The position numbers and the translations under genes were made by a program. Positions 54,626 to 63,645 of a stretch of DNA of 64,000 nucleotides are shown one piece after another (position 1 is the stretch's first letter; every line of letters starts with the position of its first letter). Location of the stretch: positions 128,001 through 192,000 of the forward strand of contig CBDAOC010000020.1 in assembly GCA_965197925.1 (NCBI GenBank), written 5' to 3'. Under the pieces are notes generated by a model. That model saw only the letters and a program-made list of their open reading frames with translations. It ran no database searches and was not told the origin of the DNA. Source of the DNA: Nitrososphaerales archaeon (lineage in GTDB: Archaea; Thermoproteota; Nitrososphaeria; Nitrososphaerales; UBA213).

Positions 54626-55741
54626 TTATTCCTTTCCAAATTCCTTTTCTAATTCTATAAACAATGATTTTTGTCTATCATTCAACTTTGTAGGAAGCTT
54701 CACGTAAACTCTAACCAATTCATCACCCCTTCCATAACCGTCATTTTTTGGTAACCCTTTTCCTTTAATTCGCAAGACAGTATCCGGCTGTGTTCCCTGG
54801 GGAATTTTTATTAATGTGTTACCATCAAGCGTTGGTACTCTTACTTCAGCACCTAGCGCGAGCTTCGAGATTGATAATTCCATTTCGTATAATAAATCGC
54901 TATTGGATCGTTTGAAAATGTCATGAGGTTTTACCTGTACTTTTATGTATAAGTCACCACTAGCACCACCGTTTGAGTGCTCGCCTGCACCTTCGATTTT
55001 CAACATATTATCATCTTCAACACCCGCCGGTATCTTGAATCGCAATTTTTGGGGTTTTCTTACATGGCCTCTACCCTTACATGTCTTGCACGGTTTGTCA
55101 ATTATCAAGCCTTCACCACTACAAGTTCTGCATGGTTCAACCGTAACGAAGGTAGAAAACCTCGACTGATTCATAACATGCCTAACTTGACCTTTACCAT
55201 TGCATATAGAACAAGTTCTAGGCCTCGTTCCAGGTGCACTACGACTTCCCTTACATTCATCACAATTAACAGTTGTATACACCTCGATCTCTTGTTCTAC
55301 TCCATGTAGAACATCTTCAAGAGTCAACTCAGCTTCATAGACAAGGTCTTGACCACGTCTATTAGTGCCAAAACCAAATGGGTCACCCCTTCCAGAAAAT
55401 ATGTTAAATATATCCTTGAAACCAAAATTACCAAATCCAAACCCTATATCTTTGAATATTTCTTCAAAATTGGCTTCTGACCCTCTGAAGATATCTTGTT
55501 GGCTTGAATATCTTCCTGATAACCCTTCATACCCATATGTGTCATACAATTGCCTCTTTTCAGTGCTGGATAACACTGCATAAGCTTCAGAAATCTCCTT
55601 GAATTTGTCTTCGGCTTCCGGTGCCTTATTTCTATCAGGGTGATACCTTAATGCTAACTTTCTATATTCTTTCTTGATCTCATCAGCACTTGCATTTTTA
55701 GATACACCTAAGACTTCATAATAATCTCTCTTGTTGCTCAT
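54626..55741 (-). CDS. dnaJ: Chaperone DnaJ
   Basis: HPD J-domain; four CxxCxG zinc-finger repeats. Confidence 0.96.
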
Positions 55742-57705
55742 TGCTGTTCCTGCTTGCCTTCTTCAGTACCTGTAGTCTGGTCTTGGCTTGCTCCTGTAGT
55801 CTGGTCTTGGCTTGCTCCTGTAGTCTGGTCTTGGCTTGCTCCTGTAGTCTGGTCTTGGCTTGCTCCTGTAGTCTGGTCTTGGCTTGCTCCTGTAGTCTGG
55901 TCTTGGCTTGCTCCTGTAGTCTGGTCTTGGCTTGCTCCTGTAGTCTTTCCTGCTGCCTGATAAACCTGTGCGCTTACCTCACCTAAAATATTTTTTAGTT
56001 CTTGAATTTTTGTTTTCAAGGTATTGATATCACTACCAATCACTGCTTTCATAGCAGCAACCGCTGTATTGATCTGTTCTGTCTGTTCGCTTGTAAGCTT
56101 ATCTTTAAGATCTTGTTTGACCAATTTCTCCGCAGTATAAATCAAATTATCAGCTTCGTTTCCACTTTCCGCGTCTTCCTTCCTCTTTTTATCTTCCTCA
56201 GCGAATTGGTCAGATTCTTTCTTTAGTTTCTCTATCTCCTCCTTCGAAAGTTTTGTGGTTGCCGATATAGTTATCTTCTGTTCCTTCGCAGTTGCAAGAT
56301 CCTTTGCAGATACATGTAGTATCCCGTTGGAATCTATATCAAATGTAACTTCTATTTGTGGAACACTTCTTGGAGCAGGAGGAATTCCATCGAGGTTGAA
56401 CATTCCCAATGATATGTTATCAGCCGCCATCGATCTCTCACCCTGCACAATATGTATTGTGACCGAAGTCTGATAATCTGCAGCAGTTGTAAATATCTTG
56501 CTCTTCTTCACAGGTATAGTTGTGTTACGCTCTATCACTGGTTCACGTAAACCACCAAGAACCTCTACTCCAAGCGTTAGTGGGGTTACATCTAACAGTA
56601 CAATATCCTTTGAAATATCTCCCCCAATAATTGCACCCTGTATTGCAGCACCAATAGCTACTGCTTCCATTGGATCTACTCCTCCTTCGGCTTCCTTACC
56701 CATCACTTCTGCCACAAATTTAAGTAGAATTGGCATTCGAGTTGGCCCGCCTATTAAAATAATTTTATCAACTTGATCTGGCTTTAGTTGTGCATCTCCC
56801 AATGCTTGCATAATAGATGATTTGCAACGCCCAACTATCGGCCTAACAATATCCTCCAATGTAGAGCGGGTAGATTGCATTGTTAGGTTCTTGGGAGAGT
56901 TGGTAGACTTATCATATGAGATAAATGGTAAATTAATTTCTGTAGTCATAGTTGATGATAATTCTATTTTCGCCTTTTCTGCAGCTTCCCTTATTCTGGT
57001 CATAGCGGTTCTATCACTGGTTAGATCCGTACCACTTTCTTCTCTAAACTTGTTAATTATGTCATCTACCAACACATTATCCATGTCTGTACCACCGAGT
57101 TGTGTATCACCTGATGTACTTTTCACTTCAAATACACCACCGCCCAACTCCATTATAGTAACATCTAAAGTACCTCCTCCAAAATCAAAGACCATTATCT
57201 TCAGATCCTTCTCTGCCTTGTCAAGACCATAAGCTAGGGAAGCAGCTGTTGGCTCATTGATTATCCTTACAACTTCCAAACCTGCAATAGTACCCGCATC
57301 TTTAGTGGCTTGCCTTTGATTATCATTAAAATATGCAGGAACAGTTATCACTGCTTTATCGACAGGTTCGCCCAAAAAGGTTTCCGCATCTTTCTTGATC
57401 TTCTGTAGTATAAATGCCGAAATTTGTTGTGGTGTGTATTCCTTTCCATAAACTCTGAACTTGAAGTCAGAGCCCATCTTGCGTTTTGCTGCAATAACCG
57501 TACCGCCAGGATTGGTTACAATTTGCCTTCTTGCAGGTTCACCAACCAGTAGCTCCCCATCTTTGGTTAGAGCAACTACAGAAGGAAAAGCCTTTCCACC
57601 CAGAGTTACCCCTTCAGCAGCAGGTATAATAGTAGGTTTGCCACCAACTATAACTGCCGCTGCACAATTGCTAGTACCCAAATCTATACCAATTATCTTG
57701 CCCAT
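55738..57705 (-). CDS. dnaK: Chaperone DnaK
   Basis: [32 protein letters not shown]. Confidence 0.97.
55769..55946. repeat. 24-bp perfect tandem repeat, about 7.4 copies, encoding (TTGASQDQ)n in the DnaK tail
   Basis: Unit cctgtagtctggtcttggcttgct. Confidence 0.95.
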
Positions 57706-57710
57706 ACAAA

Positions 57711-58235
57711 TCATTCCTCATCAGGTTTAATATTAATTTTCTTTGAAATTTCTACTAGGCTAGGTCTTACAACTCTACTCCTTGACATATATCCTTTCCT
57801 GATCTCTGCGGTGATAGTATTTTCTAAATATTCATCGTTATCTATGAAGAATACAGCTTCGTGTATACTAGGATCGAATTTTTTGCCAACGGCATCTATT
57901 TCCTTAATTCCTTCCTCTTTCAGAGTGAAATCAAGATTCTTAAGGATTGATTCCAAACCGTTAACTAGTTCTGGATTGTCTCCACTCTTCACAGTTTCCA
58001 TTGCACGGATATAATCATCTTTCAATTCAATCAGTTTAATTAAAAATCTTTCAATCTCTTTCCTTAACATTATTTCTGATTCCCTTTCAACTTGTTTCCT
58101 ATAATTTTGATATTCTGCAAGAAGATATTGGTATTTGTTATGATACTCTTCAGCGTCAGCTTGCTTTCTCATTAATTGTTCCTTGAGTGTTTCTATTTCT
58201 CCATCATCATTGGTTTCCACCAAGCCAATCACCAA
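57711..58235 (-). CDS. grpE: Nucleotide exchange factor GrpE
   Basis: [20 protein letters not shown]...RPSLV. Confidence 0.93.
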
Positions 58236-58284: not shown

Positions 58285-59421
58285 TTATCCCTGTATCTCA
58301 ACTTCACATAGGGGATTAGCTTTCACAAGTATCATATCAGATTTTGGGTTGTTCTTGGTAATTCTTTCATAATCATGTTTTGAGCATGCTATGGTAATGA
58401 CAGTTTTATCTTTATGGTATACATCGAACGTCTCTCCACGGTGACTTTCGACATCCCCAATATAGTCCTTTAATTTCAATTCAAGAGTTGCAAGCAGATC
58501 CAATTTGTCTCCACGCATTTCATTTGCATCAATTGTCCAAGCTATAGCAACTCTTGTTCTGCTAGCCTTAAGCTCTTTCTTCTTCAAGACTTCCCGTACC
58601 TGATCAATTAGATATTTAACATAGTTTTCGCTGCTTTTTATACTTCCATTAACTAGATACATTAAAGGCCCTGCGCTTTCGAGTGAGGAGCTTACGGCGC
58701 GAAGATCAAAGAGGCCATTGGTCATATCGTCAAAATATAGTTCCTTGAACTCCTCTTGATCCAACTGTTCCTTTGCAGTAGAATCATGTACATGTTTGCA
58801 CATCTCAAATATACTAGCAAGATATGAATAGTGAGCCAAGACTCGTATAGCATGTGTAAATTCTGCAGTGCCGAGATCGACGATTTTGGGTTTTCCTTCA
58901 GAATCCTGCAAAAATTTTACCATATTATTATCATTCTTAGATTGAAAAGACCCAATTGGATGATTCTCAAATTTTTCTGGGCCAATAGGCATGTAGTAAT
59001 AGTTAATGTCCAAGCCGACCTTCATTCCCGTTATGTGTTCAATCAATACTATGTTTTCATTGTTTCCACCCAATCCAGTAGGAAGATTATAGATTACCGA
59101 CGAGTCTTTTTTTAGCGGTTTAATTGCATCCTTGAATTTAGTAGAAATATCTCCTCTTACTTCCTGTCCGGTTCTCCTTATCCTGGGCGCAAAGAAGAGG
59201 TAGTTTGCATCCCGTATGGCCGAGTCGACCGGTTCCAAACCCAACAAGGGTTCATCATCTAATAAGGAATTGACATTAGGATAGGTCCTGGCAATCTCTG
59301 AGTGTATAGTAATTGCACTTCCTTGCAATTCGTCTATGATAGCAACTTGGGCATTCTTTTTCGCAAGAATAGATGCTATCTCATAGCCTTCCGTGCTTAA
59401 ACCATACACTACTGCTTTCAT
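58285..59421 (-). CDS. Divergent nucleotide-sugar-dehydrogenase-like protein
   Basis: MKAVVYGLSTEGY Rossmann-like start and similar layout, but no GGxC catalytic motif. Confidence 0.6.
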   Translation of the reverse strand: MKAVVYGLSTEGYEIASILAKKNAQVAIIDELQGSAITIHSEIARTYPNVNSLLDDEPLLGLEPVDSAIRDANYLFFAPRIRRTGQEVRGDISTKFKDAIKPLKKDSSVIYNLPTGLGGNNENIVLIEHITGMKVGLDINYYYMPIGPEKFENHPIGSFQSKNDNNMVKFLQDSEGKPKIVDLGTAEFTHAIRVLAHYSYLASIFEMCKHVHDSTAKEQLDQEEFKELYFDDMTNGLFDLRAVSSSLESAGPLMYLVNGSIKSSENYVKYLIDQVREVLKKKELKASRTRVAIAWTIDANEMRGDKLDLLATLELKLKDYIGDVESHRGETFDVYHKDKTVITIACSKHDYERITKNNPKSDMILVKANPLCEVEIQG

Positions 59422-59698
59422 CTCAGCCAAATCATTTTTTAAGGAATGTATCTGCACTAAAAGCTTTTCACATGCACAATTCTGTATTATTGCACAGTTG
59501 ATATTTGCGTGACCGTTTAGCACATATTAGTATTGAATTTCAATATGATGAGTAACCGGAGAAGAACTGGAAAAAATATGACTACATAAATGAGGCTTTA
59601 ACAACCTTTATTCCTTAGGATAATCATGTATTTGTATACGGGATCAGTATATCAAGTAAAATTATAAGGATGAGAATGAGTAAGACGAATGGCCCGGA

Positions 59699-59792
59699 AG
59701 CCCGGTGGAGAATCACTTTATTCGCCGAATGTAGCGGTCAAGCATAGGGGCCTTTGGAGCCCTTGACCCCAGTTCGAGTCTGGGCCGGGCTA
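59699..59792 (+). tRNA. tRNA-Gln(UUG) with 21-nt intron between positions 10 and 11 (59709-59729)
   Basis: Removing AGAATCACTTTATTCGCCGAA gives a complete cloverleaf AGCCCGG-TG-GTGT...CT TTG GA...TTCGAGT...CCGGGCT-A; junctions form a BHB. Confidence 0.9.
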
Positions 59793-59821
59793 CTTTCAAT
59801 ATATAGTCCCTCTTAGCACCG

Positions 59822-60030
59822 GGCTCTGTAGAAACCATACTATAAAGACAGTCATTCTGTGCATATTGTAGGCAATTACCCTAAATGTAAATTCCCTGTT
59901 CTGCATCTTAGCAAGTCTTGATGTCGCATACTCTCCAAACATTCTCTTTGTCACTAAAAATGTAGTCTTATTCTTGTTCCTTTGATAGCAAAGTTGTTTG
60001 TAGAATCTCCTCTTCATATGCTTCCGGTAT
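59822..60030 (-). mobile_element. Right-end remnant of an archaeal IS5-family element
   Basis: YQRNKNKTTFLVTKRMFGE...QNREFTFRVIAYN; end ggctctgtagaaacc. Confidence 0.75.
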
Positions 60031-60289: not shown

Positions 60290-60396
60290 GAATCTTAGAG
60301 CTAATTCTAATGGAATAGGGGAGACAAGTCATGTTGAAATTGTAGACGAAAATATACAGATTTTATCTATAAATAACAAGAAACAAAAAGAAATTG

Positions 60397-60550
60397 AGTT
60401 GTTCCCCGTATCTGACCCACAAGGAATCACAGGTAGCTACTCGCTTTACCTCCTCCCGCACTCTCTACGGGGTGCCTGCTGTTGCACAGCTGGGTGAAAC
60501 CGAGAATCATTATTTTCATCTCAATCCGTCTCTGTGCGTTTTTGCAGGCA
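60397..60550 (-). ncRNA. Two-hairpin archaeal box H/ACA pseudouridylation guide RNA
   Basis: Hairpin 1 GCACAG/CUGUGC, pocket, K-loop, then A-ACA; hairpin 2 CCCCGUA/UACGGGG, pocket, K-turn, then A-ACA; followed by a U-rich tract. Confidence 0.8.
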
Positions 60551-60574
60551 TATGAAATAAAACTTAAGGATCTA

Positions 60575-62215
60575 TTAAATTTTCAAAAGGTCAGAAATGT
60601 TGAACTCGAAGACAGAAATTGGTACACGCATCTTGAATTTATCAATAGTTTCTTTATTTACTTCTCCTATTCTACCCACACTTTTATTATTAAGGATGAT
60701 CTCTGCAGACTTGCCATTAACAAGTATTGGGTGGCTTACAGATCTTGTTTCGAAATGTATATTAAATAAGGATTGAAGTGTCGATTGCAAATAAGATCTC
60801 GCTTCTGTATAATCTGCATCCTTGTGAGCTATTGCAACAGCAATACTCCAAGATTCTTCAGCGGTCAAATTAGCAAAAATGACTTTCCCGACTTCGAATA
60901 TTCTCTGTGGATAAGGCTCGTGAATATTTTTAGAGAGAGTGAAAATAATTGATGGGAGAAGAGAATTCCGGAGCACAATAGGCCCAATACTCTTTGATCG
61001 TTCGATTGCAACGATGTTGTTTTGGTTCCTATTCATTAGGTTGTAATCAACTTCGTTACTTACAAGAGTGGAGTTCATCACCTCAATCATCCCAAGTGCA
61101 ATTAGAACTTCACGGACTTTATCCAGTATAGAGGAAAACAAATCTCTTGAGCCCACAGAACTTGATTGAGGATATGTTGCATCAAGTCTGTAGATGCCGT
61201 AACCTATGGCAATGTCTTCGACGAGATCAATATCATGCATTACATCTGTCCTATACCGTGGGATTTTACATCTTACAGCATTCCCATTCTTAATTGCGCC
61301 TATTCTACTCCTTTGCAGACAATTCACTATCTCAACTGCACTAAGATTAAGACCAAGAAGCTTATTTACATAATCAACCTTCAATTTCCTAATATTCTCC
61401 TTCATGTTTGGTGTTTCCACTCCCTTGCGCCCATAGTTGACCTTTACTGTATTGATCTTAAACTTTGCATCGTACAGAGTAACTGCTAGGATGGCAAGAG
61501 CATCTTCTGCCGCTTTAAAGTCCGTAGCTGTTACTTCAATAAACAAGTTCTTATTTCTTTCAGTTACTTTTGTTAGTTCAGAGTTGATAATAGGTGGGAA
61601 TGACAAAACGTTTCTATCTCCATCCTTAATAATCGGATGCCTTGTACAATTGTCAAGAATAGAACTATATTGTCTACCAACATCAGTATTTTCTGAAATT
61701 TCCTTCAAACTCATACTCCTATCAGAATTTAATGGAATAAATTTAAATTCTGAATTTTCAGTAGTGTATAAAATTGGCGATTTGATTACATCATAATTAT
61801 GAATCCCTATTGAAATTCTCTTTCTATTTCTTCCAATTCCCTTATGAATATCTTCCTGCATCGATATTATCTGCCGTATTCCCTCTTTGTCCAACTTGCC
61901 ATTCATAGCCACCAATGCGACAACGTAGGGTCTTACTTTGTTTACGCTTTGATCTATATTTACAGAAATTCCACTTTTCCCATATTGGAATTTTGGTAAG
62001 CCCTTATCGATTGAAAATATTCCATTCAAAGCTCTTGCAATTCCATAATCTGTTGAAAAGTCGGGTCTGTTGGGATTGTATTCTACTCTAACATAATCTT
62101 TAGCTTGTTCCTCAATATCCAATGCGATTTGTGGTAACATTTCCAGTATTTTCTCTACGCTCTTTCTTCTGACAAGCTTCTTCAAGCGATTATGGTAGAG
62201 AGTTACAACGGGCAA
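60575..62215 (-). CDS. pheT: Phenylalanyl-tRNA synthetase beta subunit
   Basis: NPNRPD, SFPPIINS, RYRTDVMHDIDLVED; probable TTG start (MPVV). Confidence 0.93.
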   Translation of the reverse strand: MPVVTLYHNRLKKLVRRKSVEKILEMLPQIALDIEEQAKDYVRVEYNPNRPDFSTDYGIARALNGIFSIDKGLPKFQYGKSGISVNIDQSVNKVRPYVVALVAMNGKLDKEGIRQIISMQEDIHKGIGRNRKRISIGIHNYDVIKSPILYTTENSEFKFIPLNSDRSMSLKEISENTDVGRQYSSILDNCTRHPIIKDGDRNVLSFPPIINSELTKVTERNKNLFIEVTATDFKAAEDALAILAVTLYDAKFKINTVKVNYGRKGVETPNMKENIRKLKVDYVNKLLGLNLSAVEIVNCLQRSRIGAIKNGNAVRCKIPRYRTDVMHDIDLVEDIAIGYGIYRLDATYPQSSSVGSRDLFSSILDKVREVLIALGMIEVMNSTLVSNEVDYNLMNRNQNNIVAIERSKSIGPIVLRNSLLPSIIFTLSKNIHEPYPQRIFEVGKVIFANLTAEESWSIAVAIAHKDADYTEARSYLQSTLQSLFNIHFETRSVSHPILVNGKSAEIILNNKSVGRIGEVNKETIDKFKMRVPISVFEFNISDLLKI

Positions 62216-63645
62216 TGCGGAATACTCCTTAGCCATGATAACTTGTTACTGTAAAGTTCCCTTACATCATCGAGTCCATACCTCAACATTGCAATCCTCT
62301 CTAATCCACCACCCCATGCAAGTACTGGATTTTTTATACCAACTGGTAAAGTAACTTCAGGTCTGAAAATACCCATTCCAAACAGCTCAACCCATTTACT
62401 CAGCTGTTCATGGTAAACCATTGATTGCAACGATGGTTCCGTATAGGGAAAGAATGAGGGCCAGAATTTGACCTTTTTCAAACCTAGTTTATAATAAAAT
62501 TCTGTCTGAAGACCCATCAGATCACGCAAAGTAACGTTCTTGCCAACCACTACTCCTTCTACTTGATAAAATTCAGCTAAATGCTTATATGTTGATTTTT
62601 CATTTCTAAAGACCCGCCCAGCTGAAAATACCCTAGCCTCAGCAGGTTTATTGTCAGCAAGATAACGGATCGTAACAGGAGTTGTATGCGTTCTTAATAC
62701 TAATTTACGCGCATCGTTAATATTCCATTTGTAGCCCCAACCTTTTTCATGAATACGCGAAACACTATTTACCATTTTCTTATCAGCAACACTACTATCC
62801 CGTAGATCTGCAATGTAATAGGTATCCTGCATATCTCTGGCAGGGTGATCCTGAGGTGTGAAGAGGACATCGAAGTTCCAGAAGCTGTTCTGCACCAACG
62901 GACCCTCAATCTCCTGAAACCCCAAGCCTATGAAAGTTTCCCTTACTTCATCAATAATATCCTGTAAAGGATGCTTCCTACCTGCAAATATTATGGGTGC
63001 TGATGCGGTTACATCTATAGCTATTCTTGTTTCTGGTTGCTTATTTACCGCCTCAACTAAAGTAAGACCCTGCTGTGATAGTTCGATTTCCTTGCTCTTC
63101 GTTTCACTCTCTTCAACATAATTTGGTCTTCTTCTTAACGAATGATAAGCGGCAAGCTCCTCTTCATGCAAAATATCTACTGAAATCCGGCCTCTTGCCA
63201 ACCTTGCAAGTAAAATTTCTTCATTTGATTCTTCTAAATTATTGGAAGCTGTAATCACCGAAGTTTTGTCTATAAATCTTATCCATCCCTTTCTCTTAGC
63301 AATTGAGATAGCTATATTAAATTCATTATCGTTGAGCCCGAACAGCTTTTTTGCTTCTAGTATTGCAACTTGTCTATTGAGTGAACGTAAAGAATTAATG
63401 AATTTCCTTTCAGGTAGCCCATTTAACACGGCCTCAGCACCCTCACTTCCAATGTTTAGGAATTTCGCAATATTTTCATTAACATTAATCAGACCCTTGT
63501 GCTTAAGCCACTCTATTCCTCTCCTTACTTGATCTTCATTCAGCCCTGTTTGATGAGTTAGAGTAACAAGTGTCAGCTTGCCTTGAGAAAGTTCTTTTAT
63601 CAGGATGCGCTCGATTTCATGAAGTGTATTAATATCGAAAGTCAT
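62203..63645 (-). CDS. pheS: Phenylalanyl-tRNA synthetase alpha subunit
   Basis: PQDHPARDMQDT, LRTHTT, FFPYTEPS, GLERIAM. Confidence 0.95.
   Translation of the reverse strand: MTFDINTLHEIERILIKELSQGKLTLVTLTHQTGLNEDQVRRGIEWLKHKGLINVNENIAKFLNIGSEGAEAVLNGLPERKFINSLRSLNRQVAILEAKKLFGLNDNEFNIAISIAKRKGWIRFIDKTSVITASNNLEESNEEILLARLARGRISVDILHEEELAAYHSLRRRPNYVEESETKSKEIELSQQGLTLVEAVNKQPETRIAIDVTASAPIIFAGRKHPLQDIIDEVRETFIGLGFQEIEGPLVQNSFWNFDVLFTPQDHPARDMQDTYYIADLRDSSVADKKMVNSVSRIHEKGWGYKWNINDARKLVLRTHTTPVTIRYLADNKPAEARVFSAGRVFRNEKSTYKHLAEFYQVEGVVVGKNVTLRDLMGLQTEFYYKLGLKKVKFWPSFFPYTEPSLQSMVYHEQLSKWVELFGMGIFRPEVTLPVGIKNPVLAWGGGLERIAMLRYGLDDVRELYSNKLSWLRSIPHCPL

Follow-up and report, generated by a model that had tools for sequence, protein, structure and literature searches.

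The pheT-linked element and its architecture

The window, by which we mean the whole stretch of 64,000 nt that was analysed, comes from a Nitrososphaerales genome (G000) in which archaeal SRP RNA, 16S and 23S rRNA and archaeal amoA are present. On its minus strand, at 60575–62236, lies pheT, the gene for the phenylalanyl-tRNA synthetase beta subunit, which was assigned by Pfam matches (PF17759, PF03484, and PF03483) and synteny and is the conserved upstream neighbour of the element described here. At 60550–60400 of the same strand, 24 nt past the pheT stop codon, two classic H/ACA units form a box H/ACA-type element of approximately 151 nt. The element is supported by its fold, by homologues and by an RNA-library contig matching 60406–60540, and the outer helix and the final ACA were taken to mark its ends. 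A BRE/TATA-like element, GAAAA-TTTAATA (60573–60584, minus strand), overlaps the pheT stop codon about 25–30 nt before the RNA. A word of the TTTAATA, TTAATAA or TTATAAG type stands at an equal distance in the 20 homologues inspected from families f1 and f8, and judging by its sequence the element is likely the RNA's own promoter. The U-rich tract at 60371–60393 (minus strand), A/T-rich in relatives but not conserved in sequence, is likewise a likely transcription terminator.

Several other features were recorded in the surroundings. In the tRNA-Gln(UUG) gene at 59699–59792 of the plus strand, the acceptor stem is paired throughout and roughly 20 nt, likely a non-canonical intron, are inserted at the D arm on its 5' side; the Rfam match to this tRNA covers only the part past the insert. 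Beside it, at 59820–60030, an element of about 210 nt with 37 further BLAST matches across the assembly (68–94% identity) overlaps a 73-aa ORF (59796–60017) without a Pfam match, and is likely a small mobile element or an IS remnant. The ORF at 55738–57714, which we take to be dnaK-like, carries at its 3' end (55754–55960, minus strand) about eight tandem 9-residue units of the TTGASQDQT type. A 412-aa ORF at 58285–59523 (minus strand) has no Pfam match and shares 70–79% identity with ORFs at the same place in genomes G008 and G005. Elsewhere in the assembly, contig C16 (24379–91424) holds thirteen intron-less tRNA genes, in contrast to the intron-bearing tRNAs of contigs C17–C20, and this stretch may be foreign DNA (contamination 5.4%).

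Two H/ACA units on the minus strand had been proposed in a sequence-only reading, and all their elements were found at the positions given there. Unit 1 consists of a lower stem (60532–60537 with 60484–60489), the 5' guide strand AGACGG (60526–60531), an upper stem with a K-loop (60499–60525; 7 bp, U.U, tandem GA/GA and a 7-nt loop), the 3' guide strand UUCACCCAG (60490–60498) and the first ACA box (60480–60482), all on the minus strand. There are 10 layers from the pocket to the second GA, the tandem GA being 60517–16/60508–07. The two G.U pairs that close the unit-1 pocket in that reading are weak (pair probabilities of 0.27 and 0.44); it is more likely that the invariant GG at this pocket belongs to the guide strand. 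The same reading had left out the targets, the TATA-like box over the pheT stop and a 7-bp outer helix (60550–60544/60479–60473; pair probability 0.73–1.0), which encloses unit 1 together with its ACA box, the box lying within the internal loop that the helix closes. We infer that this outer helix has a structural role, holding unit 1 in place and shielding the 5' end, and is not a switch.

In unit 2, again on the minus strand and with the lower stem, GA/GA, C-stem, ACA and U-rich tract all where they had been proposed, the lower stem (60466–60472 with 60404–60410) is followed by the 5' guide strand GAGAG(U) (60460–60465), an upper stem that contains a K-turn (60418–60459), the 3' guide strand GGUCAGA (60411–60417) and the second ACA box (60400–60402). 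The K-turn has GA/GA at 60452–51/60428–27, a 3-nt bulge, a 4-bp C-stem at 60450–47/60435–32 and an apical loop. Its K-motif also lies 10 layers above the pocket by manual count, one bulge included; a K-motif about 10 layers above the pocket is the rule described in PMC4652768, as far as its available text goes.

The folding z-score of the element is −3.22, with equal stability in 0 of 200 shuffles, and its G+C content is 0.52 as compared with 0.30–0.38 in the surroundings. The pair probability of the unit-2 upper stem is low (0.02–0.11) in a model that ignores K-turns, and this stem therefore rests on its motif and on the homologues; in the MAFFT alignment it is only 70–75% paired. All sequence-level H/ACA features tested were found, except for the strict UN rule in unit 1. 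A descriptor scan of the whole 2.9-Mb genome returned these two units as the sole matches, and a looser descriptor run on the five largest contigs (2.38 Mb) returned the same two, with 0 in the reversed-sequence control; both descriptors were designed with this RNA in view, and atypical guides would escape them. The genome encodes Cbf5 (393 bits), Nop10 (75), and L7Ae (159), all above the cut-off, while the match to Gar1 is weak (E 1.6e-4) and below it.

The assignment of the element to a known RNA class, archaeal box H/ACA, is solid, and this member is absent from Rfam 15. A scan against Rfam 15 gave nothing at the gathering threshold, which HgcE/F/G, snoR9 and the other families did not reach; only chance-level matches (E 4.5–8.5) overlap the RNA or its 3' flank. 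The literature searched, mostly non-subscription, describes no H/ACA RNA from this lineage, and the earlier suggestion that the guide may be undescribed is thus borne out within Rfam 15 and that literature.

Two metatranscriptome runs were considered. In run X1, one contig matches 60406–60540 over 135 nt with zero differences and has adapters at both ends, leaving the rest of a 1,301-nt stretch uncovered. The contig covers both units, in agreement with a single RNA; it is a lone record from one of the two runs, selected for containing words of the element, strandless and not defining the true ends, and it could be DNA. Coverage in run X2 was of pheT only. The share of words found in both RNA runs was small (0.06–0.07), and we therefore make no habitat claim. 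Transcription as one RNA, probably with the TATA box that overlaps the pheT stop as its promoter and the U-tract as its terminator, is weakly supported.

Conservation and distribution

By BLAST, the element was found in all eight genomes of its own family and beyond, with some match in 19 of 61 genomes. In an alignment of 15 sequences, 95.3% of the cells of unit 1 and the outer helix are paired, and two-sided changes occur in 13 of 20 pairs, namely 5/7 in the outer helix (95% of cells paired), 4/6 in the unit-1 lower stem and 4/7 in its upper stem. None of 500 shuffles reached this value, a test inflated by the relatedness of the sequences, and slid controls pair at 30–45%. For unit 2, aligned over 41 sequences, 96% of the lower-stem cells are paired with two-sided changes in 2/6 pairs, and the 3' UGA of the K-turn and the ACA box are near-invariant. 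The 3' arms of both lower stems were placed by covariation and the pairing model, and that of the outer helix by covariation and pair probability. The sequence-only reading had proposed stem covariation as a check and loss of the ACA boxes and tandem GA pairs in relatives as evidence against itself. The stems covary, the unit-1 box reads ACA in 87 of 88 homologues and AUA in the other one, and both GA steps are present in 84/88; these counts overstate the invariance, since the motifs themselves served to select and anchor the hits. Together with the encoded partner proteins and a library contig confined to the element, this upholds the archaeal H/ACA architecture claimed there.

Model searches were made for each unit separately. 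The unit-1 model (R1) matched 107 of 151 genomes of the order and 70 of 121 of the class, and the unit-2 model (R2) 140/151 and 96/121, respectively, the latter at E ≤ 0.5; the tallies of 151 include one unpublished genome (G107). The R1 count is a lower bound, as clear unit-1 copies were missed in G157, G161, G159, G162, G165, and G174. In the phylum sample, from which G000 and family f12 were left out, R1 matched 2/131 and R2 8/131 genomes. Both R1 matches sit after pheT and retain the clamp, while some of the weak R2 matches are other H/ACA-like motifs. pheT is directly upstream in all of the 18 loci collected at the start and in 56 of 74 further loci, many of them with a flank of 400 nt only.

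The two units do not always travel together. In one f8 genus they are separated by 58–119 nt, and a further TATA-like word stands ahead of unit 2. Family f15 has unit 1 in 1 of 23 genomes and unit 2 in all 23 by the two models, and R2 did not find unit 2 in 6 of 10 f11 genomes. In one f15 locus (L018, G055, ~1420–1500), we observed a decayed unit 1, its pocket collapsed and its ACA gone, within an intact outer helix and next to an intact unit 2. Other R2-matched H/ACA-like motifs have different pockets (L205, G221:C21:498-567; L206, G207:C15:12682-12752; L200 and L201, in G171 and G189; L249, in G345), and a second H/ACA-like copy in two f29 genomes is among these extra matches; they are candidates for other guide families.

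Predicted target sites in the rRNAs

Targets are given in E. coli numbers, for which the 23S rRNA of the genome was aligned to one E. coli copy. The genome's own U2082, U2086, U2088, U2743, and U2744 align to positions 1878, 1882, 1884, 2546, and 2547 of that copy. At 2,865 nt the copy is 39 nt shorter than the standard E. coli 23S rRNA, which we take to be 2,904 nt long, and the corrected numbers are therefore 1917, 1921, 1923, 2585, and 2586. A further site, in 16S rRNA, aligns to U1376, numbered on an assumed length of 1,542. The rRNA sites are identical in the genomes of the order that were read (21/21 for the peptidyl-transferase site and 18/18 uninterrupted copies for helix 69), so guide–target covariation is absent. 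The target patterns each match once in 16S and 23S rRNA and in 1–20 of 1000 shuffled rRNAs, having been drawn after the match was known. In the f22 and f27 guides, changes are solely to G.U-compatible letters.

In five 23S genes (L060, L070, L073, L074, and L152, from G012, G058, G001, G030, and G169), we noted an insertion in helix 69 right after 1923/1924. Its beginning is complementary to the upstream exon, a pairing that presumably resembles a group I intron P1 helix, and the insertion breaks the unit-2 target, so that pairing of the unit-2 5' guide there would need the spliced junction.

The predicted target of unit 2 is, with good confidence, U1921 in helix 69 of 23S rRNA, as judged from complementarity. 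GUCAGA is predicted to pair with U1915–C1920 and GAGAG with 1922–1926 (1919–1925 if shifted), so that U1921 would lie 15 nt from the box, the canonical distance, with the target UN dinucleotide left as expected, though its N may pair. The UCAGA core is compatible in 79 of 84 guides, partly by selection. Sixteen registers, combining four U's with distances of 14–17 nt to the box, were compared using 84 guides from the set of 88 genomes whose loci were retrieved. U1921 at 15 nt is compatible with 72 guides, which represent 16 of 21 families, and is followed by U1923 (42 guides, 6 families) and U1917 (27 guides, 5 families), both at 17 nt; the other 13 registers fitted 0–1 guides each, and U1915 was rejected as a target on this ground (0–1 of 84). 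The guide of the source genome itself fits the U1921, U1923, and U1917 registers alike.

The presence of unit 2 also tracks U1921 across the class, which is suggestive only. Among 67 genomes carrying the exact U1921 word, which are pattern matches not each verified as 23S, unit 2 was found in 64, as compared with 1 of 8 with a verified C1921. Genomes G154 and G171 had been dropped from ten C1921 matches as lying outside rRNA, and G168 and G192 from 69 U-pattern matches as having a non-matching variant only. The C1921 genomes span three families, and the contrast is weak since five of the eight belong to f26, whose two U1921 members are also without unit 2; G018 keeps U1921 without unit 2. Two related ideas were abandoned. 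That five f11 genomes have lost unit 2 could not be tied to loss of U1921, because the one with a 23S gene (G018) keeps it; and the f8 guides reading AGAGGGU, for which C1921 was expected, occur with U1921, so theirs is a G.U change and not compensation.

For unit 1, the 23S site U2586 or U2585 is the probable target, again by complementarity. ACCCAG is predicted to pair with C2579–U2584 and GACGG with C2590–C2594, leaving U-U-A-G-A unpaired. The best-kept pocket letters, ACGG (88/88 homologues) and ACCCA (87/88), both partly by selection, are complementary to C2590–U2593 and U2580–U2584, which lie on either side of U2585-U2586-A-G-A. This match is the only one in the rRNAs and recurred in 1 of 1000 shuffles for the source guide and 20 of 1000 for the core. 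U2586 lies 15 nt and U2585 14 nt from the ACA box. Unit 1 would leave 4–5 target bases unpaired, where the UN rule, which itself is not strict, has an unpaired dinucleotide, and if the pocket is drawn canonically below the 10-layer upper stem, it is G2588 and not a U that would face the active site. The guide base expected to pair with U2585 does so in 14 of 88 homologues and is C in the source genome, while the outgroup guides of f24 and f29 have the second A, which would pair with U2585, in 9 of 10. In the 5' loop of Haloferax volcanii sR-h45, the first two of the three U's are paired to A's and Ψ2605 is the third U, the most 5' unpaired U being the modified one according to the available text of PMC7075261; on this ground U2585 would be favoured in the source genome. 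A search of the whole genome for a perfect canonical unit-1 target gave 11 and 37 one-mismatch matches, none in rRNA genes; tRNA targets were covered poorly, as ARAGORN gave just 27 tRNAs in the assembly.

Both assignments have competitors within the rRNAs. Unit 2 might mainly make the widely conserved Ψ1917, and perhaps Ψ1923, which we consider rather unlikely. In the source genome AGAGAGU pairs perfectly with 1919–1925, with 4 bp more on the 3' side, and the U1923 register has 8 contiguous 3' pairs; the descriptor scans found no other classic H/ACA motif that could serve U1917; Sulfolobus islandicus sR148 serves the 1917 and 1923 equivalents, as far as described in PMC11077068; and G159 retains a drifted unit 2 in spite of C1921. 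Against this, both registers stand at 17 nt from the box and fit far fewer guides and families than U1921 does. With similarly low probability, unit 1 might act on 16S U1376, alone or besides the 23S site, through UUCACC/GGUGAA and GACG/CGUC. This pairing has 6 + 4 Watson–Crick pairs in the source genome, puts the U immediately below the 10-layer upper stem, is as rare in shuffles as the 23S match (1/1000) and is compatible with 57 of 88 homologues, including 9/9 of f1; several sites per pocket are possible, judging from the parts available of PMC2377435 and from S. islandicus sR435 (PMC11077068, likewise in part). However, U1376 would lie 17 nt from the ACA, a distance seen in non-functional P. 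abyssi predictions, and the pairing is broken in 31 of 88 homologues despite an invariant 16S site. It leaves the invariant C7-A8 of the 3' strand and the last G of ACGG unexplained, and all members fit in 7 of 22 families as compared with 21 of 22 for the 23S core.

The remaining two alternatives concern the mode of action. That unit 1 is an assembly chaperone, holding the strands of the peptidyl-transferase loop and helix 93 but not modifying them, is improbable. Unit 1 does frame G2588-A2589 in the canonical geometry, these two bases could form pairs with the first two pyrimidines of the unit, and the 1/23 retention of unit 1 in f15, against 23/23 for unit 2, would agree with such a role. 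On the other hand, ACA box, spacing and K-motif are retained as in catalytic guides, non-canonical unpaired stretches can still be active, and the f24 and f29 outgroup guides read AACCCA, as described for the active H. volcanii loop in the accessible part of PMC7075261. Least probable is a cis element of the pheST transcript, be it a 3' UTR structure, a terminator or an L7Ae-bound regulator, in place of a free guide. In its favour, linkage to the 3' end of pheT is tight throughout the class and extends to two genomes beyond it. The RNA's own TATA-like box speaks against it, as do the f8 genus in which a second TATA-like word precedes the separated unit 2, some homologues without a pheT match in the flank examined and the X1 contig, which stops at the RNA; the rRNA-complementary pockets would moreover stay unexplained.

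Proposed function, known counterparts and implications

Taken together, we consider it likely that the pheT-linked RNA is a conserved two-hairpin H/ACA element transcribed separately as a guide, whose units would bind L7Ae, Cbf5, Nop10, and Gar1 and direct pseudouridylation of 23S U1921 (unit 2) and U2586/U2585 (unit 1). By analogy with the known archaeal H/ACA pathway, as presented in the available part of PMC7991803, L7Ae would sit on the K-loop and the K-turn and Cbf5 on the ACA and lower stem of each unit, and the target U would be flipped into the active site 14–16 nt from the ACA. The outer helix would clamp unit 1. In the element's own family, the unit-2 pocket can also be drawn on U1917 and U1923, in both cases at 17 nt. 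What weighs against the predicted sites is that in P. abyssi 6 of 21 predicted sites were unmodified, going by the part of PMC2377435 at hand.

The closest counterpart in predicted function and layout, compared by description and not by sequence homology, is H. volcanii sR-h45 (PMC7075261, from its available sections throughout). Its 5' unit is directed to the U-U-U before helix 93 (Ψ2605 corresponding to E. coli 2586) and its 3' unit to helix 69, in the same order as predicted here. Each unit has a K-motif and an ANA box and is able to work alone, and an atypical unpaired stretch is tolerated, the 3' loop making the helix 69 pseudouridines through 4 unpaired nt. In contrast, the 3' unit of sR-h45 serves the 1915 and 1917 equivalents, while the conserved register of the pheT-linked RNA is 1921; its 5' pocket follows the canonical scheme, two A's pairing with U2603-U2604, whereas the second A is present here in 14 of 88 homologues; and its units are joined by a 56-nt linker, while here they abut and an outer helix surrounds unit 1. 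S. islandicus sR148 resembles unit 2 in having a guide strand for the 3' side of helix 69 that reaches two sites (1917 and 1923 equivalents) by a register shift, but it has a single guide strand and is without lower stem and ACA box, whereas the pheT-linked RNA is made of classic units with both strands (PMC11077068, as far as available).

With the Pyrococcus RNAs Pab35/HgcF, Pab40/HgcG, Pab105/HgcE, and the single-motif Pab91, the element shares K-turns or K-loops, a 10-layer GA stem and, by prediction, an ANA box 14–15 nt from the target and targets in 23S domains IV and V, according to the accessible parts of PMC2377435 and PMC4652768. It differs from them in matching no Rfam family at E ≤ 10, in its other predicted targets, in lower stems of 6–7 bp as compared with 8–9 in Pyrococcus, and in the presence of the outer helix. 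Outside the archaea, the predicted U1921 falls on the same position as yeast Ψ2264 of helix 69, which the part available of bioRxiv 10.1101/2024.02.02.578723 states to be conserved from yeast to humans; as yeast 2260 is E. coli 1917, yeast 2264 is E. coli 1921. The yeast and human modification is made by eukaryotic snoRNPs without K-turns, and kinship of their guides to the pheT-linked RNA is not implied. An equivalent of Ψ1921 is not among the archaeal sites given for S. islandicus in Table 1 of PMC11077068, nor for H. volcanii and P. abyssi in the available text of PMC7075261 and PMC2377435, respectively.

A more far-reaching proposal, which we regard as doubtful, is that a class-wide guide gives the Nitrososphaeria a eukaryote-type Ψ1921, equal to yeast Ψ2264, and that the clamped unit 1, with its enclosed ACA box and a pocket that leaves 4–5 target bases looped out, puts a pseudouridine on the catalytic U2585 in the lineages that have lost the pairing A. 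The RNA might then be the only classic H/ACA guide of its genome, serving up to five sites (23S 1917, 1921, 1923, and 2585/2586, and 16S 1376).

The class and the mechanism of the RNA are well known, so the surprise is modest. The analysis provides a ready Rfam family of more than 100 members. Natural variants for probing the strictness of the ACA ruler and of the UN rule are at hand in the outer helix, which covaries, and in the wide pocket of unit 1. For the ammonia-oxidising archaea and their relatives, the analysis offers a testable pseudouridine map of two regions, the peptidyl-transferase centre and the subunit bridge at helix 69, and if Ψ1921 is confirmed, a modification known from yeast to humans would gain a guided counterpart in an archaeal class.
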